A DNA stretch of 64,000 nt. It comes from a virus. Lineage: Duplodnaviria; Caudoviricetes. Location of the stretch: IMG/VR virus record IMGVR_UViG_2901966883_000003; one strand, written 5' to 3'. The notes under the pieces were generated by a model. It was not told the DNA's origin and made no database searches. It saw nothing but the letters and a program-made list of their open reading frames with translations. How positions within the stretch are numbered: the stretch's first letter is position 1; every line of letters begins with the position of its first letter. The position numbers and the translations under genes were made by a program. Below are positions 10,565 through 55,215 of this stretch, piece after piece.

Positions 10565-10627
10565 TTGATTTAAGATTGATATATGGTATAATATAGTAGT
10601 TAAGTTAAGAGTTTAGTGAATAAACGA
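10565..10627 (+). promoter_or_regulatory. Sigma-A promoter followed by the 24-bp repeated element
   Basis: TTGATT-16-TATAAT then GTTAAGAGTTTAGTGAATAAACGA (10604-10627). Confidence 0.7.
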
Positions 10628-21958: not shown

Positions 21959-22181
21959 TGCACAGGGTCTATTAATTGTAAAAGGTTAATAGGTCATAGG
22001 TAGGGATAACCTACCAAATAAAACTAATTTTGGTACAAGGCATAGTACTAAAAGTCACGTCAATCGCCTTGCATTAGCAATACTTGAGCTATCACATGTT
22101 TTTGAGAGCATGGCAAGGCATAGGCACATACCGTTAAATATACGTGCCGAGAATTTTTAACAACTTTGGAGGTACTAGACT

Positions 22182-23929: not shown

Positions 23930-25099
23930 GTGGTGAGTAAGATGTTAAAAGGTGTTAAATTACGCATATATCCAAATAAGGAGCAACGTAAACAGTTAGA
24001 TATTATGTTTGGGAATAGTCGTTTTGTTTGGAATAATATGTTAGCTATGATGAATGAGCGTTATAAGAATAACAAAGATTTGCCTATATTGAGTGGTTAT
24101 GACTTGAATAACTTACTAAAGCCATTGAAAGTTGAATATCCATTTTTGAAAGAGAGTGATAGTTCTGCCTTGCAAGTAGATTGCCAAAATCTATATCAAG
24201 CGTGGAAGAACTTCTTTAATTCTGGTTTTGGCAAGCCTAGATTTAAATCTAGGAAATTCTATAAGCAATCATATACGGGTAAGTTGGTAAGTATCCATGT
24301 AATAGCTAAAAGATATATGAAAATGCCTAAGCTAGGATATATCAAGACTAGCAAAACATCTCAACTCACTGATTGTAAGATTAAACGCTATACGTTAAGT
24401 CATGATACAACTGGTCGTTATTATTTATCTTTACAGGTAGAATGTGAAAACCAAGCATTGTTACCTAAGACAAATAAAGCAGTTGGACTAGACTTAGGTG
24501 TAGCAAATTTAGCTATTTCTTCTGATGGAATTAAATACGATACATTCCATGTTGAAAGTTTAGAGAATAAAGCTAACTTGTGGCAACGTAAGTTTTCTAA
24601 GCGTAGACATCAAGCTAAGGTTTGTATTGAGAGCGACAAATACTCAAAAGTATTAGTGCCTAGAGATTTTGATGATTTTAAAAATCTGCAAAAAGCTCAA
24701 AGAGCTAAAGCTAGATTACAAGCTAAAATAGCCAACACACGCAAAGATTACTTGCATAAATTAACCACAATGTTAGTTAAACAATACGATACTATCATTA
24801 TTGAAGATTTAAGAGCTAAGAATATGATGAAAAATCATAAACTAGCAAAAGCAATCGCTAATGGTTCGTGGTACTTATTCCGTTCTATGTTGGAATATAA
24901 GTGTAATTGGTATGGGAAACAACTAATAGTAGTTAGTCCTAAATACACTTCACAAGTATGTTCTAACTGTGGTGTAAATACAGGTAAGAAACCATTGGAT
25001 GTTCGTGAGTGGACTTGTGATAATTGTGGTACACATCACGATAGAGATATTAACGCTGCTAGAAATATCTTAGCTAAAGGATTAAAACAAGTAGCTTAA
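23930..25099 (+). CDS. tnpB: TnpB RNA-guided endonuclease (tnpB-1)
   Basis: N-terminal HTH (LRIYP), RuvC D (GLDLG), E (IEDL), D (RDINAA), CSNC/CDNC zinc finger. Confidence 0.93.
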
Positions 25100-31643: not shown

Positions 31644-32363
31644 CTACACCTCCTTATTACGTTTTGCTTTTATTTTATCGAACTCATCTTGTGTTAATTT
31701 ACCTAAATCAACTAGCTTTTGTTCAATCATGTTAAGTACTTCATTACGGTCGGATAAGTTGTTTACGAAATCGTATTGTGAACGGTCAATACGTACAACT
31801 GGTGCTTGATAGAAACCATTGTACCAGCGTTTGTATGCTCTATTCACTGAATGATAATAATCTACTAACTTAGGGTCTTTACGCACATCTTCCATATCAC
31901 GACCACGTGCTTGTATTGAGTCGATTTCATCTTCTTCGTCAATATCAATGTAGACAACCAAATCTGGAAAACCGTTAAACGGACTGCCATTAACATTAGA
32001 TTGCATTTCTTGGTTCAATGTCATGTAAACGTTATAAGCGTCTTCGTCCATTTCCCCTCGTTCGTATATATTTCGTGCTAAGATATAATCGCTTGCTAGA
32101 TTTGAGTCTAATACAGCGTTTTCTTCAACGATAGCCTTTTTTAATTGTTGGTATCTAACCGTTAAGAAAGCTACCTGTAACATAGCACTAACTTGTTTTC
32201 TACTTTCTGCACCAGCACTATAAAAATGTTCTAACATGCCTTTGATTAAGCCATTGTCTACATCTTCATAATATGGGGTACTATTTAAATCTTTAGCGAG
32301 TATTTCTGTTAAGCTAGATTTGCCAGCAGAAATACTACCAATTACATAGATAATACTAACCAA
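31644..32363 (-). CDS. Deoxynucleoside kinase
   Basis: IGSISAGKSS P-loop, QVAFL..RY, PDLVVY, I.ARGRDME; start placed at TTG 32363. Confidence 0.88.
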   Translation of the reverse strand: MVSIIYVIGSISAGKSSLTEILAKDLNSTPYYEDVDNGLIKGMLEHFYSAGAESRKQVSAMLQVAFLTVRYQQLKKAIVEENAVLDSNLASDYILARNIYERGEMDEDAYNVYMTLNQEMQSNVNGSPFNGFPDLVVYIDIDEEDEIDSIQARGRDMEDVRKDPKLVDYYHSVNRAYKRWYNGFYQAPVVRIDRSQYDFVNNLSDRNEVLNMIEQKLVDLGKLTQDEFDKIKAKRNKEV

Positions 32364-32377
32364 CTTCTTTCTCACAT

Positions 32378-32566
32378 TCGTGTGCATATAGGAACAAAAC
32401 AAAATATTAGATGATAAAGGCTTATTAAATCTTGAACGCAACAAATTGAGAAACATCTTACATTATCGAAGATACAAGGGATAAGCCTTAGAATATTATC
32501 ATATATACGAAAAGACGTTAAATGAATATAACTAGATTTTTATGATTTGTTCCTATATACACACGA
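32378..32566 (-). repeat. 21-bp inverted repeat enclosing a 147-nt loop (hairpin-framed RNA)
   Basis: 32378-32398 vs 32546-32566, 20/21; the mismatch is G.U on the minus strand. Confidence 0.75.
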
Positions 32567-32587
32567 AATATTATATTTAATTGTTAA

Positions 32588-32677
32588 CGGTAAGTAAGGG
32601 ACTCGAACCCTTGCGTCCACAATTATGAACCTAACAGTTTAGCAAACTGTCCCCTTCACCAACTTGGGTAACTTACC
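32588..32677 (-). tRNA. tRNA-Ser(GCT)
   Basis: GGTAAGT/ACTTACC acceptor, TTGCTAA loop, long variable arm, AAGGG-TTCGAGT-CCCTT T-arm. Confidence 0.92.
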
Positions 32678-32683
32678 AAATAT

Positions 32684-33162: not shown

Positions 33163-33375
33163 TATGTTCTTTGACACATATGAGTAGCACATTTTTTGTT
33201 GCCACAGATGTAATAAAAGGTACTGTCTGTCCCACGTACATGTGGGTAACACCAGTTTCCTACGTCTCAAGTGCTATAAACCTTAGTCTGTCCCACATGT
33301 ATGTGGGTGACACTTCTTTATCACTGTAACGCAGTCTGACGGACGTAGTCTGTCCCACGTACATATGGGTAACAC
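33163..33375 (-). CRISPR. Mini CRISPR array, type I-E-like 28-bp repeat GTGTTACCCACATGTACGTGGGACAGAC: 3 repeats + 1 degenerate, 3 spacers
   Basis: Repeats at 33348-33375, 33286-33313, 33225-33252 and degenerate 33163-33190; spacers 34, 33 and 34 bp; palindromic CCCAC/GTGGG core. Confidence 0.88.
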
Positions 33376-33557: not shown

Positions 33558-34814
33558 CTAGGCTAATTGTTTTAATCCTTTGTCTAGGATATTCTTGGCT
33601 GCATTTATATCACGAATATGGTAAGTATTACAGCTAGGACAAGTCCAACTTCTATCTTTTAGTGTTAGCTTGTTCGTATCTTTTGTTCCCATAACATGCC
33701 CACATTCACTACATGTTTGTGTTGTATTCTTAGGATTTACAGTAACAAAAGTCTTACCATATAATTCAGCTTTGTATTCTAGTTTTTGTAGGAATGTTCT
33801 CCAACCTACATCACTAATAGACATAGCCAAAGCGTGATTTCTCAACATATTTTTACTTCTTAGATTTTCAGCCACAACCAAATCGTGGTTCTTGATAAGT
33901 GTTATCGACATCTCGTCCAAGAATTTATTACGTTGATTACGCACTCTGTTCATGAGTTTTGATACCACCATACGTTGCTTTTGATAGTTCTTGCTGTCAC
34001 GTAAAGAACGTCCCTCTTTCTTGGCTCTAACTTGTCTGCGTGATAATTTACGTTGTGCTTTAGCTAATCTACCCTTAATTGTTCTATAAAATCTTGGGTT
34101 AGCCACAACATTACCTTCGCTAGTTGTTAAGAAGTTATCTGTGTTTAAGTCAAGTCCAACTTGAGAATTAGTCTTAGGCAACTCTTTAACAAAAGGTGTA
34201 TCAGAACCTAGCTGCATAGAAACATAGTAGATACCAAAAGCGTTTTTAGAAATAGTAGTTGTACCAATTCTAATATCGCCTTTATTATCCAATAGCTTTC
34301 TATATGAACCACTCACACGAATAATACCCAACTTAGGAATATTGATATGCTTATTATCTACGAACCTAATTGAGCCAGTCCACATATTTACTGGTTTCTT
34401 CTTACTTGGATAAGTACCACTTGTTTGATACTTCTCCTCGTAAGTTTTCTTATGGAAATTAGGTGTCCCAGCGTTATGAACTTTTCTAAACATATTCCAT
34501 GCAGCTTTATAAGAACGCATTGCCATAGAACGACAATGACTATCAATATAAGGGTGTTTCATGTAGGTATAGTGCGTTGCTAAATGGTTTTGAGCCTTCT
34601 TACGTTTTTCCAATTCAGCAATACGTGTTTGAATTGTATCAATAGGTAGTTTTACCTGTTTTAATTGGTATAACTCTTTATCAATCGCAACCATAGCGTT
34701 ATATACAGCCCTAGATACATCACTGTTCATCTTAATGATTTGTTTTTGCTTCGTGCTAGGGTGAATACACATCTTCAAGCCATAGTGGTATTTTAACTCA
34801 CTCATTGTCTTCAT
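33558..34814 (-). CDS. tnpB: TnpB RNA-guided endonuclease (tnpB-2), CRISPR-adjacent
   Basis: RuvC D (GLDLN), E (AENL), D (RDINAA); CSEC/CPSC zinc finger; 418 aa. Confidence 0.93.
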   Translation of the reverse strand: MKTMSELKYHYGLKMCIHPSTKQKQIIKMNSDVSRAVYNAMVAIDKELYQLKQVKLPIDTIQTRIAELEKRKKAQNHLATHYTYMKHPYIDSHCRSMAMRSYKAAWNMFRKVHNAGTPNFHKKTYEEKYQTSGTYPSKKKPVNMWTGSIRFVDNKHINIPKLGIIRVSGSYRKLLDNKGDIRIGTTTISKNAFGIYYVSMQLGSDTPFVKELPKTNSQVGLDLNTDNFLTTSEGNVVANPRFYRTIKGRLAKAQRKLSRRQVRAKKEGRSLRDSKNYQKQRMVVSKLMNRVRNQRNKFLDEMSITLIKNHDLVVAENLRSKNMLRNHALAMSISDVGWRTFLQKLEYKAELYGKTFVTVNPKNTTQTCSECGHVMGTKDTNKLTLKDRSWTCPSCNTYHIRDINAAKNILDKGLKQLA

Positions 34815-34860
34815 CTATCTCACCTCTTTTCTGTTATATATTTATAGTCTTAAAGACTAA

Positions 34861-34920
34861 TTGCAACGGTGGGGCTCGAACCCACATCATCCTTTGCTCT
34901 ACCATTTGAGCTACGTTGCT
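34861..34920 (-). ncRNA. Anticodon-less tRNA-like element
   Basis: GCAACG/CGTTGC acceptor, GCTC-AAATGGTA-GAGC D-arm, 10-nt linker, GTGGG-TTCGAGC-CCCAC T-arm. Confidence 0.8.
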
Positions 34921-35065
34921 AACCTTCTAATTCTAAAAGGAGGAAATCTTAAACCATGAACCAATCCGTAAGTCGTAATGAACCCGCTCATGAATTAACT
35001 TATTAATGTCGCATTATTACTTAACGCAAAGTTATAATCTCGGGGTAGTCATGCCCTACCCCTAT

Positions 35066-35115
35066 TACCACATTAGGAGTCGAACTCATAAAATGTACCT
35101 TTTAACATCTGTGGC
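35066..35115 (-). ncRNA. Anticodon-less degenerate tRNA-like element (matches spacer 3)
   Basis: GCCACA/TGTGGT acceptor, GAG-TTCGACT T-loop, no anticodon arm. Confidence 0.55.
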
Positions 35116-35224
35116 AACAAAAAAAATAATTTAAAAAAGGAGTGTTGATTAATACGCAAAACCTAATCAACTAATAAAAAATGAACGAATTAATAAATGT
35201 TTGTTTCGAGGTGTTTCCACCTCT

Positions 35225-35299
35225 ATGTCATAGTAAGGACTTGAACCTTGCTGCTCTCGTGTTAAGGACGAGTGTGTTACCCGCATACACCATATGACT
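35225..35299 (-). tRNA. Atypical tRNA-like gene, anticodon loop CCTTAAC (nominal TTA)
   Basis: GTCATA/TATGAC acceptor, GTGT/ACAC D-stem, CTCGT/ACGAG anticodon stem, AAGG-TTCAAGT-CCTT T-arm; C33 and A1:A72 mismatch. Confidence 0.65.
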
Positions 35300-35683
35300 A
35301 CCGATTAGGATAGATATTTATTGAATAATTACGCATAGGTTTACTAACTACACTATTCGCGTTCGCCTATCCGCTCCCACATTCCCTTTAAAGTCTGTGA
35401 GCGTGGTATGTAAAAGCCGCATATGAGCTTGTGTGGTATAGTGTTCCCGACAGTCCAACATTTTACATACCAAATGTCTACTCGTTTATTCTCTAAACTC
35501 TTAACATATAGTAGACTGTTTTTGGGAGAGCATTTTAATAGCTCCTAGAGAGAACGGGACGAAAAACTGTGTCAGTATCGTAAGTTGTATTAGGGGTTAA
35601 TTATAGCTGTATTTCATTGAGTTGAAAGGAAGTGAAAACCAACCCGTTCCCTTTAGCAACCATCAAAGCTGCCTTATGTAGTT

Positions 35684-35899
35684 TTAGTGTTTTCTCTTAA
35701 CAGAATAGATATGTTTCTTGTGCCATTCTTTTATATTGCTAAACCCAGCTGCCAAACCAGCTAAATAAAATAACTTAGTCCAGAAACCATAGCTATAAAA
35801 GATTAGGTCAAACGCAACGGTCATAATAAACAACCATTGAATTAAATACCATGTTCTCGTTAAGAGAAATCTATCAATCATATTACTTAGTTTATCCAT
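35684..35899 (-). CDS. Small membrane protein
   Basis: GGAGGTG RBS before MDKLSN; two hydrophobic segments. Confidence 0.65.
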   Translation of the reverse strand: MDKLSNMIDRFLLTRTWYLIQWLFIMTVAFDLIFYSYGFWTKLFYLAGLAAGFSNIKEWHKKHIYSVKRKH

Positions 35900-36448
35900 C
35901 TTTACACCTCCAATTAAGGATGGATATATCAACGAGTAGTTAAAAATGGAAATATATAATCAAGAGCATAAAAAATACATTAAAAGTCAACCGCCTACTC
36001 GCTGATATATCAACCCTAATGGGCTGACATTCAGATAAAAACAAAAATAGTATAAAAATAAAAGTTTTAAAGAGATGATATTAAAATCAGTATTAATGTA
36101 ATTAACAAAATAGACTAGAGATACACTAACCATAGAATATCATCAAATATAAGAAAAATTTGGAAGTACAAATCCTTTTTAGATTTGCGAAAGTTGTTTA
36201 GGTAAACTAAGTTTTGTCTACCTACATAGGATTTGGAAACTTCTTGACGGAAGGAGTTATAAACCAATATTCTAACCAAACCCTATGTAGATGGGCAATA
36301 CCGTTATTCACCCACCTACCAATATTTTGGAGGTGTCGCCACGATAACCGCTACATAAGTAAAGAAAATAAACAAAATATTTTAGTAAAAGGAGGCACAT
36401 TCATTGTGAATGCACAAAATCAAGTATCATTATAGTTATCGTGACAAA

Positions 36449-36528
36449 TATCGGATTGATGAATTGAACACCAAACCTTACAAGTACCGTTATCATACTC
36501 ATACGCTCTGCCATTAAGCTATCCGATT
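36449..36528 (-). tRNA. Atypical tRNA-like gene with extended anticodon arm
   Basis: ATCGGA/TCCGAT acceptor, GCTT-AATGGCA-GAGC D-arm, 8-bp stem with 9-nt loop, TGGTG-TTCAATT-CATCA T-arm. Confidence 0.6.
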
Positions 36529-36612: not shown

Positions 36613-36675
36613 TCGTTTATTCTCTTAACTCTTAACTACATATATTATAATACCATATAAAAAATAAAAGTCAAC
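36613..36675 (-). promoter_or_regulatory. Promoter of the ncRNA/tnpB-2 unit followed by the 24-bp element
   Basis: TTGACT...TGGTATTATAAT then GTTAAGAGTTAAGAGAATAAACGA. Confidence 0.7.
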
Positions 36676-38522: not shown

Positions 38523-38810
38523 TTAATTAGACACGTCTATTTCTGCGTCCACGATACCCCAATCTACAATAGCGTCACCACATAAAATTGCTTCAATCTC
38601 TGATGGTGTATCAGCTGATATTCCAGCTACACCCGTAGCTATATCGACTGCGTGATACCGTTTACCCCCAAGTTCTTTTATTACAAACCAGTATTCTTCG
38701 TACGCACTTTCACCGTTATAAACAACTTTAATCACGTCACCGCATTCTATTCTTCTTTTGTTTAAGACCCTTTTATTAATCTTCATCAAAACACCTCTAC
38801 TTAGATACAC
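38523..38810 (-). CDS. Paralog family C small protein
   Basis: GDVIKV...YW...DIATG. Confidence 0.65.
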   Translation of the reverse strand: MYLSRGVLMKINKRVLNKRRIECGDVIKVVYNGESAYEEYWFVIKELGGKRYHAVDIATGVAGISADTPSEIEAILCGDAIVDWGIVDAEIDVSN

Positions 38811-39606
38811 TTAGCTTGGCGTCTACAACTTCCCAGTCATCAACACGAGCGTTTAATTCATCACAAATATCTCTATCAAAATCTATTGAAATCACGATAC
38901 TACCAGACTCCAAATTAACTAGGTGGTACTTGCATACACCAGGGTCATATACTACTATGACATAACATTCTTGTATCTCAACGACCAAAGCCTCTTCGTT
39001 TTCGGTGTCGGAAAACAAGATTTTGATTACGTCACCAGACCCAATAATATTGTTACGACTTAAATCTTTTACAATTTCCATTGTTCTACCAATCCCTAAC
39101 TCTAACTTATTATCAACGAAACATGATTTGATTTCTTCATTTGTATAATCTCTTGCTTTGTTTGCACAAATTTCATCTTTAAAATCTTTCCAACTAGAAT
39201 GTGAGTGTGTCATTTCCACCAATTTCCATGGCTCTATAGCAACTAATCTCCCCACAATTTTTTTAAAATCATTTACAACATTACTATTCAAGATATTATT
39301 ATCCATTTTTACTGTATGAACATGTATAATCCCATCTTTAATATTTGCTACTTTGTATTCGTAAGTTATTGGAATTGCTCCATTATTTTTAAAATTTCGG
39401 TATACTTCTTCCTCAACTGGTCCATATCTCCACTTAGAAAAATTGCCATTTATTAAAGGAGTATCGTATTCAGATAAACAATAACCCTGTAAAAAGAATA
39501 ATACCTTTTGTAGCTTTAGATTTGTTACTGGCTTATCTTCTTTTTTAGCAACACCAATTATAAAATTAGCCACAGCCATAGGGCTTTGTGATTCAAATCT
39601 TTCCAT
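38797..39606 (-). CDS. Panacea/SocA (DUF4065) antitoxin domain fused to a family C domain
   Basis: VANFII, TNLKLQKVLFF.QG, WRYGPV, L..MTH...W; C-terminal MEIVKD...GDVIKI...NLESG. Confidence 0.8.
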   Translation of the reverse strand: MERFESQSPMAVANFIIGVAKKEDKPVTNLKLQKVLFFLQGYCLSEYDTPLINGNFSKWRYGPVEEEVYRNFKNNGAIPITYEYKVANIKDGIIHVHTVKMDNNILNSNVVNDFKKIVGRLVAIEPWKLVEMTHSHSSWKDFKDEICANKARDYTNEEIKSCFVDNKLELGIGRTMEIVKDLSRNNIIGSGDVIKILFSDTENEEALVVEIQECYVIVVYDPGVCKYHLVNLESGSIVISIDFDRDICDELNARVDDWEVVDAKLSVSK

Positions 39607-41508: not shown

Positions 41509-41739
41509 TTATCGCCAATCTAACAGAACTATCATCGTAACCAATCCAGCTACGAAGCAAAAGAATGAAGGTACAAAAATGAAAAAACCATTTATTAGCA
41601 ACAATCCGCTTGCTACTCGACTTGTACCCCAATACATAGCAAATAATGCTACATATGTGCTTGCAATAATAAAACCGACAATGGTTGAAAATACCCAGAT
41701 AATTCTGTTGCGTTTTTCTCTTTCTGTATTATTCATCAT
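41509..41739 (-). CDS. Small membrane protein
   Basis: AGGAGGG RBS; two hydrophobic segments. Confidence 0.6.
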   Translation of the reverse strand: MMNNTEREKRNRIIWVFSTIVGFIIASTYVALFAMYWGTSRVASGLLLINGFFIFVPSFFCFVAGLVTMIVLLDWR

Positions 41740-43077: not shown

Positions 43078-43461
43078 CTATACACGTTCGATATTAAAAC
43101 CTTTATGTTTATTGATTTTGCCATCTAAGACACGTCCAATAAACTCATCTTTTAGCTTGTTATCATCAACAAACTTTTGGTATTCTTCGCTGTTTTCTTC
43201 AAACACATTTTCATTACCATCTGTGTCAGTAAATTTAATCTTATTGACTTGTGTTTGTTCTTCTTGCTTTGGTTCGTCCTGTAAATCACTAGCAACTTCT
43301 AGGCTTTCTTCACGAGTATCTTTAACTTCATGAACATCAACTGCTGGAATTACTTCCTTAGTATAGAAGTGTTCCAACCTAGTAAACATTTGATTGCCTA
43401 TGTAGTAGACTCTCTTCATGATAACAGGCTCACCTTTATACCAACGATATGGTTTTGTCAC
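43078..43461 (-). CDS. Hypothetical phage protein
   Basis: GAGGTG RBS. Confidence 0.65.
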   Translation of the reverse strand: MTKPYRWYKGEPVIMKRVYYIGNQMFTRLEHFYTKEVIPAVDVHEVKDTREESLEVASDLQDEPKQEEQTQVNKIKFTDTDGNENVFEENSEEYQKFVDDNKLKDEFIGRVLDGKINKHKGFNIERV

Positions 43462-53631: not shown

Positions 53632-54936
53632 CTATCCCATAACATATTGTTTTACAGTAATTACTTGTTTTTGCCAATTATTACTATGATTAATTAAGTT
53701 GATATTTTTAGTTGAGGTGTAACTTTTATCACTATTGCTTACATACTCACCAAAAATATCTCTTAACCTTACGTTCGTTCCTTTAGACATAAATCCACTA
53801 ATATAGCCTTTCTTGTTACTATCCTTGATTTTGACATAATCATTAAGCCAAAAACCTTTAGCGTACTTAGTATTCTTGGCACTCCTTTTGCTAGTTACAT
53901 TAGGTGTTTTACGACCCTTACGTGCTGTAGCCTCATGTAAGGAACGCTTTTTCTTTCTAAATTGTTTAAACATCATAATGCTAGTTGGCTTTGCTTTGAT
54001 TTTTCTAATACCACTAATTGCTACAGCGTCATTATAGTGGGACTTAGTTAAGTCTAAGTCAGCTCGCTGTAATGTTGTCCATGCTCCATACTGAAATTTT
54101 GCTTGAGGAAAAGCTAAAAATAGCCTTCTTCTTAGAATATTCATGAAAGTCGCACCTTTATATGATTTATTAACCTTCTTTTTATTCTTGCACCATTTAG
54201 CCAAGATTCCAGTTTGGTGGTTCTTAGTTGTGTGGCAATTAGAACATACGGTAATTAGATTATCTACGGTATTAGTTCCACCTAATGAACGGTAGATAAT
54301 ATGGTGGATTTTGAGTTTACCACCTTTTTTCTTACAGGCTTGGCAAGTGTAGTTATCTCTAGCTAAAACAAACTGTTTAACAGTTTGATAACCGTATAAA
54401 TCACCTTGCTGATAACCCTCACCATTTATTTCTGGATTCTTCATTTTCTGTATATCAAATTTACCTACTTCGATATGCAAATCAGCTTTAGGTAAGACTA
54501 ATAATAAACGATTAATCCAGTTGATATTATGGTTAACCTTACTTGCTACTGACGGTGGCAACCAGTTATCTTTTCTACTAGCTGTACGATTTAAAAATCT
54601 AGCTTTACGATAACGTGTTTTACGATTACGTCTGCCCCTACGATATATCCTTCTAGTGTCTAGTAGTTTTTTGACATCTTGTCTTAACTCTACTTCGCCT
54701 TGAAATAAGACTTTATCTTGGCTTGTAACAGCTAATCCAATATGTCTTTGACCGCTATCAATACCGATACTTATATCTTGTTTATAACCAGCTGAGCCAT
54801 ATAAGAGTTGAATGGTAAAAGGCTCTTTTTTTAAGACTTTTGCTTTGCCATCTCTCAACAAGATTCTAGCCTTTTTAGGTTTACAAGGCATTAACGCTTC
54901 GCCATGTTGATTAATTACAAAAACTCGATTTTGCAT
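53632..54936 (-). CDS. iscB: IscB RNA-guided endonuclease
   Basis: ALMP (PLMP domain), GIDSG, Arg-rich bridge helix, IEVG, HNH (HHIIYRS...CSNCH), HYNDA. Confidence 0.93.
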   Translation of the reverse strand: MQNRVFVINQHGEALMPCKPKKARILLRDGKAKVLKKEPFTIQLLYGSAGYKQDISIGIDSGQRHIGLAVTSQDKVLFQGEVELRQDVKKLLDTRRIYRRGRRNRKTRYRKARFLNRTASRKDNWLPPSVASKVNHNINWINRLLLVLPKADLHIEVGKFDIQKMKNPEINGEGYQQGDLYGYQTVKQFVLARDNYTCQACKKKGGKLKIHHIIYRSLGGTNTVDNLITVCSNCHTTKNHQTGILAKWCKNKKKVNKSYKGATFMNILRRRLFLAFPQAKFQYGAWTTLQRADLDLTKSHYNDAVAISGIRKIKAKPTSIMMFKQFRKKKRSLHEATARKGRKTPNVTSKRSAKNTKYAKGFWLNDYVKIKDSNKKGYISGFMSKGTNVRLRDIFGEYVSNSDKSYTSTKNINLINHSNNWQKQVITVKQYVMG

Positions 54937-54954
54937 CGCTTTTTCTCCTTTCAT

Positions 54955-55215
54955 TTTTCATAAGGTATTAATAACCTTATCACGTATCTATCAGAGTTAA
55001 TAAATACATGTAGTTACCCTTCGACAATGTTATCTCAGCTTATTAACAAGGTTGACTAGCACATTAACCTTATGCTTGTTTACAGTGCCTCCATAGAGCT
55101 AGAAACTAGGGTATCATTTCTAGGTATGTTCACTGAAATAACGTAGTTCTCTAAGAACTTAGTCTAGACAACAAAACTATTTAGCTACCTACTTTAGTAG
55201 GTGGTTACTGTTGAC
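54955..55215 (-). ncRNA. IscB omega-RNA (HEARO-like)
   Basis: Begins GTCAAC, hairpin CCTAC/GTAGG, AGACTAAG, CTACGTTAT...CCCTAG...AACATTGTCGAAGGG. Confidence 0.8.

Follow-up and report, generated by a model that had tools for sequence, protein, structure and literature searches.

The 64,000-nucleotide (nt) stretch of viral DNA analysed here (IMG/VR record IMGVR_UViG_2901966883_000003, Duplodnaviria, Caudoviricetes; hereafter the window) carries on its minus strand a compact RNA island, in which tRNA-like modules appear to alternate with structured RNAs within one unit, an arrangement supported by comparison with related sequences. The island runs from 36674 to 34815. Its elements follow in the order promoter, conserved box, T1, S1, S1b, S2, AT-rich spacer, S3, a gene for a protein of 71 amino acids (aa), S4, a second box copy, block X, T2, a GNRA-capped hairpin, unit C, T3, a hairpin, unit D (which includes S6), T4, a further hairpin and finally a TnpB gene, where T denotes a tRNA-like element and S a stem.

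We propose that the tRNA-like elements of this RNA island serve as processing signals that release the structured RNAs together with the mRNAs of the 71-aa protein and TnpB, and we put the probability of this reading as a whole at roughly 55%. An early-type promoter would drive a long minus-strand RNA, and ribonuclease (RNase) P and RNase Z would cut this precursor at T1–T4, most likely into separate molecules. The stable hairpin at each new 5′ end would protect the downstream piece, giving products that should be stable, and RNase III may cut the longest stems (17–28 bp). S1/S1b/S2, unit C and unit D would emerge as structured RNAs, alongside two mRNAs: that of the 71-aa protein, with S3 and S4 on either side, and that of TnpB. 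Most of the pieces carry a UCCUU or CCUCC motif that resembles the 3′ tail of 16S rRNA and could pair with Shine–Dalgarno (SD) sequences.

The analysis rests on relatives at 86–94% identity. These are G001 (a 127-kb IMG/VR record, the same as LXZH01000038.1), G002 (CP007648.1), L133 and L135 (two Logan contigs) and L015 (a 1.4-kb metagenome contig). CP007648 is pMP1046B, a circular 129-kb replicon of Lactobacillus salivarius JCM1046 in which a tRNA-Gln and a tRNA-Ser are annotated (PMC4165912), and thus the element in the window is a phage-plasmid of Ligilactobacillus salivarius of the pMP1046B type. Positions 43298–30924 of the window are identical (100%) to part of NCBI contig LXZF01000019.1 (GCA_002289785.1).

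The tRNA-like elements are central to the proposal. All lie on the minus strand, as the initial annotation of this DNA had stated.

36449–36527, minus strand: T1, tRNA-like (29.2 bits), with a 7-bp acceptor stem, D and T arms, and a 9-bp 'anticodon' stem with the loop GAUAACG, lacking U33
35226–35298, minus strand: T2, tRNA-like (30.4 bits), with C33; its anticodon arm is variable or has been replaced
35066–35115, minus strand: T3, a mini tRNA-like element of 50 nt comprising acceptor stem, one hairpin and T arm
34861–34920, minus strand: T4, tRNA-like (41.7 bits), with acceptor, D and T arms and no anticodon arm

T1–T4 are not decoding tRNAs. None has the 5-bp anticodon stem and 7-nt loop with U33 required for decoding, and the only canonical tRNA of the region is a tRNA-Ser (32587–32678). 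T2 is called tRNA-Stop(tta) by ARAGORN and is the annotated tRNA-Gln of pMP1046B, but its anticodon is not conserved even among close relatives. The loop CCUUAAC of the window (anticodon UUA) is CCUUGAA (anticodon UUG) in G001, G002 and L135, while in L133 and L015 the body is replaced and the arm has a 5-nt loop closed by 4 bp. In this respect the public record of pMP1046B can be corrected, as its 'tRNA-Gln' is probably no decoder.

The remainder of the tRNA fold has been kept. T1, T3 and T4 diverge by 3–18% (T1 by only 3–4%), compared with proportions of synonymous differences (pS) of 0.2–0.5 in the flanking genes. T2, T3 and T4 show compensatory changes in their acceptor stems, and T2 shows them in its T stem as well. 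In T2 both stems covary (A-U / G·U / G-C). In T3 an acceptor A-U pair becomes G·U and a hairpin U-A pair becomes C-G. In T4 an acceptor A-U pair is G-C in L135, there is a compensatory change in the T stem too, and the remaining changes lie in loops. The long stem of T1 has taken two substitutions, both of which keep the pairing. Because the acceptor and T stems covary and the tRNA-like elements diverge less than synonymous sites, selection, as judged from these alignments, acts on the acceptor/T-arm part. This is the part that RNase P and RNase Z recognise. T1–T4 provide the stacked acceptor and T helices (~12 bp) and the T-loop, under selection, that are expected of substrates of these enzymes, and are predicted to be such. 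None encodes CCA, and a U follows the discriminator in T1, T2 and T4. The discriminator A is followed by UUUG in T1, UAGA in T2 and AUUA or UUAG in T4; in T3 it is followed by AUAG, with no U directly next to it. A U after the discriminator in the absence of CCA marks the RNase Z route in Firmicutes. From the covariation and the low divergence we infer, with good support, that the tRNA-like elements punctuate the transcript for RNase P and RNase Z. Weak tRNA matches aside, the island belongs to no Rfam family.

A hairpin or stem begins within 3–5 nt 3′ of each of T1–T4. These and the other structured elements are as follows.

36340–36446, minus strand: S1, a framed loop with an 11–13-bp outer stem and an inner hairpin (36415–36395) followed by CCUCCUUUU (36395–36387)
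36306–36339, minus strand: S1b, a small hairpin whose stem holds CACCUCC (unpaired probability of the motif 0.15)
36211–36301, minus strand: S2, a stem of 17–26 bp with a 39-nt loop containing CUCCUUCC (36256–36249)
35917–36017, minus strand: S3, a 17–23-bp stem carrying a variable loop, its end lying 5 nt upstream of the SD sequence of the 71-aa gene
35550–35651, minus strand: S4, with a 9-bp closing stem (35651–35643 / 35558–35550) 3′ of the 71-aa gene and CACUUCCUUUC in its loop
35208–35223, minus strand: GNRA-capped hairpin, 3 nt 3′ of T2
35118–35207, minus strand: unit C, a single-stranded AU-rich part and a 9-bp hairpin (35171–35144), then ACUCCUUUUUU (35143–35133) and more U
35042–35062, minus strand: hairpin of 7 bp, 4 nt 3′ of T3
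34921–35041, minus strand: unit D, a variable patch and the S6 stem-loop (34998–34949), then CCUCCUUUU (34943–34935), partly within a 7-bp hairpin
34843–34857, minus strand: hairpin 5 nt 3′ of T4, directly upstream of the TnpB ribosome-binding site
32377–32567, minus strand: framed cassette with a 25–28-bp stem, between the tRNA-Ser and the dNK gene

The initial annotation had marked four closing stems here and a similar framed loop at 32378–32566 (the 32377–32567 frame), and folding and inverted-repeat analysis recovers all of them. It had also predicted that stems would be conserved and loops variable in related genomes, and this is what the relatives show. Among up to six related sequences, compensatory changes have preserved the long stems S1–S4 and S6. 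Folding gave z-scores of −3.9 for 36448–36205 and −5.0 for 35225–34921. In the section covering S1 and S2 (36448–36205), 10 of 54 pairs are altered on both sides, including four in the outer stem of S1 and five in S2. In a four-sequence alignment of 35300–34835, both sides change in eight of the 107 predicted pairs, and every hairpin 3′ of a tRNA-like element is represented. The 5′ hairpins that had been noted at 35223–35208 and 35062–35042 are both present and both covary: in L015 a G-C pair is replaced by A-U in each, and the loop of the former stays GNRA (GAAA to GAGA). Two pairs of the hairpin after T4 change on both sides. From this covariation we conclude that the RNA structures of the island are real.

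Several of these elements have survived wholesale exchange of sequence. S1 exists as three sequence versions of one shape, the inner hairpin being paired differently in each of three allele groups. In L133 and L135 the inner stem and loop of S2 have been swapped for a new, complementary 20-bp stem, the loop of which again contains CUCCU. The outer stem of the 32377–32567 frame is preserved, whereas each of the three genomes has its own inner stem and 135–230-nt interior; in G001 and G002 these interiors are single-copy. The folds are also strand-specific. A mismatch in S3 (35923–35939 / 35995–36011) had been noted earlier as G·U on the minus strand, and G·U pairs make the S3, S6 and 32377 folds specific to that strand. 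The S3 fold has a free energy of −33.5 kcal/mol on the minus strand compared with −21.5 kcal/mol on the plus strand, and unit D, in which S6 has five G·U pairs, −41.8 compared with −25.3 kcal/mol. In the predicted folds, S2, S3 (17–23 bp) and the 32377 frame are long enough to be RNase III substrates, for which double-stranded RNA that is nearly perfect over at least ~20 bp is expected. No Rfam family was found for S1–S4, units C and D or block X, the only matches being sub-threshold ones to microRNA families and RsaOG.

An alternative partner for the 3′ arm of S3 is the region around the start codon of the 71-aa gene (35893–35926; 11 nt with one mismatch), and the mismatch is removed in G002 by a 1-nt deletion; this pairing could act as a translational switch. 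Beside the 32377 frame, the dNK gene (32350–32380) has no clear start codon or SD sequence after the conserved frame, and the GTG of the window is TAG in G002.

The direction of transcription is indicated by the promoter and its associated box.

36647–36674, minus strand: early promoter of the sigma-70 type, TTGACT, 16 nt and TG-TATTAT, a 10/12 match with TG extension, unchanged in the relatives
36615–36635, minus strand: conserved box TTAAGAGTTWAGAGAATAAAC, 21 nt, just 3′ of the −10 element, with TTAAGAG/TTTAGAG heptads
35484–35504, minus strand: second copy of the box, without recognisable −35 or −10 elements

Transcription of the island on the minus strand from a promoter near 36640–36675 had been proposed, and agrees with the TTGACT-16-TATTAT element with TG at 36674–36647 and the box that follows it. 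The same promoter architecture recurs at 10605, 21413, 46598 and 55879. Eight matches to the box occur in the window, where chance predicts 0.03, and five of them stand behind canonical promoters, on the gene strand, that come after terminators; the box is a candidate operator or 5′ leader element. No good plus-strand promoter beyond chance level emerged from a promoter scan of the region. The earlier description had overlooked the promoter-less box copy at 35504–35484 and the block at 35482–35299.

The remaining features of the island include a protein gene.

36018–36210, minus strand: AT-rich spacer
35684–35899, minus strand: gene for a 71-aa protein with two hydrophobic segments, GGAGGTG 5 nt upstream, called as a gene in relatives
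35299–35482, minus strand: block X, non-coding, ~180 nt, with a 12-bp framed hairpin (35472–35461 / 35415–35404)
33558–34814, minus strand: TnpB gene (418 aa) downstream of the island in the same orientation, with a ratio of nonsynonymous to synonymous substitution rates (dN/dS) of ~0.04–0.06

The region is not free of genes, as the minus-strand open reading frame (ORF) at 35899–35684 had been overlooked. Its synonymous and nonsynonymous codon differences number 9 and 0 in both L133 and L135, 3 and 1 in G002, and 12 and 4 in G001. Although it has no useful match in Pfam, PHROG or the Atlas, this pattern of substitution identifies it as a real small membrane-protein gene under selection. Since the array holds a real protein gene, S3 and S4 are best seen as its 5′ and 3′ flanks. 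Block X is nearly unchanged in G001, G002 and L015; in L133 and L135 the loop of its hairpin has been replaced and the stem retained. The AT-rich spacer is dispensable, since positions 36006–36176 are replaced in G001 by a 1.3-kb TnpB element.

What might the released RNAs do? The initial annotation had seen isolated SD-like words on the plus strand with no gene behind them. These words are enriched, with 20 SD-like five-mers compared with 6.0 ± 2.8 expected, a number reached in none of 300 shuffles that approximately kept dinucleotide content, and no plus-strand ORF stands behind the motifs. One of the listed words, AAAAATGGAA at 35942, does not resemble an SD sequence; it is found in a variable loop. 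AAGGA occurs eight times on the plus strand and once on the minus. On the minus strand, five sites match a 16S-3′-tail-like 11-mer, CACCTCCTTTC, in at least 8 of 11 positions, compared with 1.24 ± 1.06 expected; this was equalled in 5 of 1000 shuffles (p = 0.005). The density of such sites on the transcribed strand is 10–17 times that in coding blocks. The common core of the motif is UCCUU. CU-rich motifs recur in non-homologous loops, as CUCCU in the S2 loop of L133 and as CACCUCCUUUAC in the cassette of G002. The motifs of unit C and unit D are unchanged in six sequences, and the S1 motif GUGCCUCCUU is retained in four of five genomes. Predicted unpaired probabilities at the motif sites are 0.98, 0.99, 0.75, 0.59, 0.33–0.42 and 0.15, the value of 0.99 being that of unit C. 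On this evidence the CU-rich motif is probably functional, and probably pairs with a purine-rich SD-like sequence, either in trans or on the island's own genes.

A number of observations weigh against the proposal. A scan for intrinsic terminators was at chance level, finding 3 against 2.3 expected, and one of these, at 36415–36395, is in the island. The hairpins followed by CUCCUUUU in S1 and unit C might act as weak terminators, which would break the polycistronic model; their tails begin CUCC, unlike the clear terminators of this genome, in which the U run follows straight after the stem without CUCC. Block X is strongly conserved yet has a folding z-score of only −0.15, so that part of the island is left unexplained. 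Only four of the six motif sites are kept in all relatives, the sites at 36395 (in G001) and 35634 (the S4 motif, in G002, L133 and G001) reading CAUCC. The site at 36335 is predicted to lie within a stem, and that at 34943 to be half paired. Lastly, when the anti-SD core is kept constant, the motif sites pair contiguously with 61 start regions of the phage no better than do flank-shuffled controls, in which the observed pairing is reached in 11 to 295 of 300 shuffles depending on the site. The best pairing comprises 16 bp (one of them G·U) and covers the SD sequence of a 75-aa gene at 41736; it was reached in 11 of 300 shuffles, a figure uncorrected for six sites. A BLAST-short comparison of the region with the window gave no long match to any start region. 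The duplex energies of S2 and unit D were striking in comparison with whole-sequence shuffles, and ceased to be so once the anti-SD core was held fixed. Pairing in cis between CACCUCC (36335) and the SD sequence of the 71-aa gene, which extends over 10 bp in the window, was rejected as it is not maintained in G001 or G002.

These data bear directly on the function originally assigned to the array, that of a source of trans-acting antisense small RNAs (sRNAs) whose exposed CCUCC or CUUCC loops would block translation initiation on specific mRNAs of the host or a competitor, the variable loops setting the targets. Much would fit: the motif is enriched, stems are conserved and loops hypervariable, the motif comes back in loops that have been replaced, three of the motifs are predicted to be unpaired, unit C has the layout typical of an sRNA (5′ hairpin, single strand, 3′ hairpin with U run), and the start region of the 41736 gene, with its 16-bp match over the SD sequence, is kept in G001 and L133. 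Set against this are the pairing to the 61 phage start regions, which stays at the level of the flank-shuffled controls, the CAUCC found at two of six sites in relatives, and the mixed accessibility, with two sites paired. The annotation had itself named complementarity no better than shuffled sequence as an argument against its proposal, and among the phage start regions this is what we find. Moreover a generic anti-SD RNA would also hit the phage's own genes, because these use strong SDs. We consider an antisense role of this kind rather unlikely, and the claim of anti-ribosome-binding-site (anti-RBS) sRNAs is not upheld for these start regions. A further elaboration seems more doubtful still, in which the island is a device that releases a panel of small RNAs, where mimics of the 16S tail, (C)CUCCUUU placed after a hairpin or in a framed, fast-evolving loop, pair with SD sequences of the host or of rival phages, and where the tRNA-like elements might also act as decoys, drawing off those defence enzymes that target the acceptor ends of tRNAs. 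Could the whole array instead be a tRNA gene cluster in decay, the tRNA-like elements being pseudogenes, the stems terminators, RNase III sites or unconstrained palindromes, and the SD-like words a by-product of U-rich tails? Defective tRNAs are frequent in phage tRNA clusters, T2 is annotated as tRNA-Gln in pMP1046B (PMC4165912), two motifs sit straight after hairpins and before U runs, and the loops diverge at or above the neutral rate. But pseudogenes would not be expected to be conserved beyond synonymous sites with compensatory changes, every stem survives wholesale sequence replacement, and the real terminators here lack the CUCC between stem and U run. Decay is thus an improbable account of the island.

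Two other explanations place the function elsewhere than in a minus-strand RNA. The inverted repeats might be remnants or targets, at the DNA level, of IS200/IS605-type (TnpB) elements or insertions resembling miniature inverted-repeat transposable elements (MITEs). There are two TnpB genes in the window (33558–34814 and 23930–25099), the second of these types has inserted into the island of G001, and the interiors of the frames differ between genomes. However, the interiors are single-copy in G001 and G002, the frames share no terminal sequence and have unrelated arms, G·U pairs render S3, S6 and the 32377 frame strand-specific, and the frames are in register with the tRNA-like modules. A MITE origin was rejected, there being no multiple copies with common terminal repeats in G001 and G002, and we regard a DNA-level explanation in general as very unlikely. 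The plus strand, finally, might be the functional one, encoding micropeptides or an RNA with many AAGGA loops. The 8:1 bias of AAGGA towards this strand is in keeping with such a role, and a start codon is suitably spaced from two of the motifs. Against it, the tRNA-like elements, the selected gene and the promoter family are all on the minus strand, G·U pairs of the minus strand would be A·C mismatches on the plus, and there is no plus-strand promoter better than chance. Nor are the small ORFs conserved: in L015 an insertion of 7 nt frameshifts the 15-aa ORF at 34956, and in G002 only 3 aa are left of the 9-aa ORF at 36406. Micropeptides, which had been named earlier among the results that would speak against the sRNA proposal, were rejected since no plus-strand peptide is conserved among the relatives, and a functional plus strand has very little to commend it.

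We return to punctuation by tRNA-like elements, for which there are precedents. Organellar tRNA punctuation, t-elements and MALAT1/mascRNA all involve tRNAs or tRNA-like structures embedded in long transcripts. Cutting of these structures by RNase P and RNase Z sets the ends of the RNAs next to them, and the tRNA-like piece is non-decoding (PMC4919922). The island shares the placing of tRNA-like modules between RNAs, here with predicted processing. These systems are eukaryotic or organellar, whereas the island belongs to a bacterial phage-plasmid and its modules are followed by covarying hairpins. By analogy, the closest phage precedent is the C4 antisense RNA of the phage-plasmids P1 and P7, which pairs with the ribosome-binding region of icd in the same transcript. 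Maturation of C4 out of a longer precursor is carried out by RNase P (Hartmann et al. 1995, cited in PMC4919922). C4 is one RNA for which the complementary target boxes are defined, while the island has several modules and the hosts are unrelated; unlike in C4, cis pairing to the start regions of the 71-aa gene or TnpB is not conserved. Since both tRNA-like punctuation and an RNase P-matured phage antisense RNA are known, the statement in the initial annotation that no described system has this layout was too strong.

Some further systems share part of the arrangement. The tRNA cluster of phage T4 contains tRNAs together with the small stable RNAs C and D, which are released by the tRNA-processing machinery. 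It is likewise a phage transcription unit that mixes tRNA-type elements and small RNAs, but the tRNAs of T4 decode, whereas in the island region only the tRNA-Ser looks canonical and the four modules do not. In the TMERs of murine gammaherpesvirus 68 (MHV68) a viral tRNA-like element directly precedes stem-loops, from which it is separated by the tRNA 3′-processing enzyme. These are RNA polymerase III units of an animal herpesvirus that yield microRNAs, with no relation to the island in sequence or host. The CU- or C-rich sRNAs of Firmicutes, RsaI/RsaOG and RsaE/RoxS, pair with SD sequences through unpaired C/U-rich motifs. Unit C has a general layout like that of these anti-SD sRNAs; its match to RsaOG is below threshold (20.3 bits compared with a gathering score of 50, E = 3.7), and so it is not a member. 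In the light of these comparisons the island is probably a variation on known tRNA-like punctuation, the anti-RBS reading being less likely but more novel. Should processing be confirmed, the island would be a clear case of tRNA-like punctuation in a bacterial virus, and would provide a compact, covariation-supported set of minimal substrates for RNase P and RNase Z. The recurrence of a 16S-tail-like motif in loops that are otherwise replaced gives a testable lead to phage RNA acting on translation initiation.

Do such tRNA-like elements occur elsewhere? We scanned IMG/VR with a pattern consisting of a D arm followed within 4–14 nt by a T arm. Of 114 hits, 28 have the complete geometry of acceptor (7 bp), D and T stems without an anticodon arm, where by our estimate fewer than one would be expected. 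The contigs span 28% to 67% GC; some of the elements lie 10–25 nt upstream of a ribosome-binding site, others within tRNA clusters. A literature search found no description of anticodon-arm-less tRNA-like elements in phages. The scan suggests that they are common and unannotated in phage contigs, and for this reason the principle may be general. Near and distant DNA searches of GenBank phages gave no matches, and exact-pattern scans for block X found only two IMG/VR relatives and one 1.4-kb metagenome contig, with none in the genome contig collection.

Mobile and CRISPR-like sequences are found in and near the island. The second TnpB (385–389 aa, at 23930–25099 in the window) is in G001 inserted inside the RNA island (L136 7139–8296), and this element has therefore moved recently. 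Adjoining the 418-aa TnpB gene is a mini CRISPR-like array (33192–33375, minus strand) built of 28-nt hairpin repeats, its spacer content being different in each of the three genomes. In the window and in G001 the terminal spacer is antisense to T3 over the 5′ half of that element (35095–35124), with a 2-nt gap, and its match to T3 of L015 is near-perfect (31 nt, one mismatch); the terminal spacer of G002 is a near-copy of the promoter box. Judged by these matches, the spacers look like targeting of related phage-plasmids.

The wider window has a GC content of ~34%, with genes on the plus strand up to ~27.4 kb and on the minus strand from ~27.6 kb, and a phage-like gene content that includes DNA polymerase III alpha, RecD2 and DnaB. 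A match to the salivarius-1 RNA, an Rfam motif, at 22066–22121 on the plus strand (65 bits, gathering score 50) fits a Ligilactobacillus salivarius host. Two kilobases upstream of the island, in the same early block, is a gene for a 269-aa protein with a SocA/Panacea antitoxin-type domain (38797–39606, minus strand). A strong match to HEARO RNA, the guide RNA of IscB-type nucleases, is found at 55010–55215 on the minus strand (117.6 bits), adjoining a 440-aa ORF at 53632–54954.

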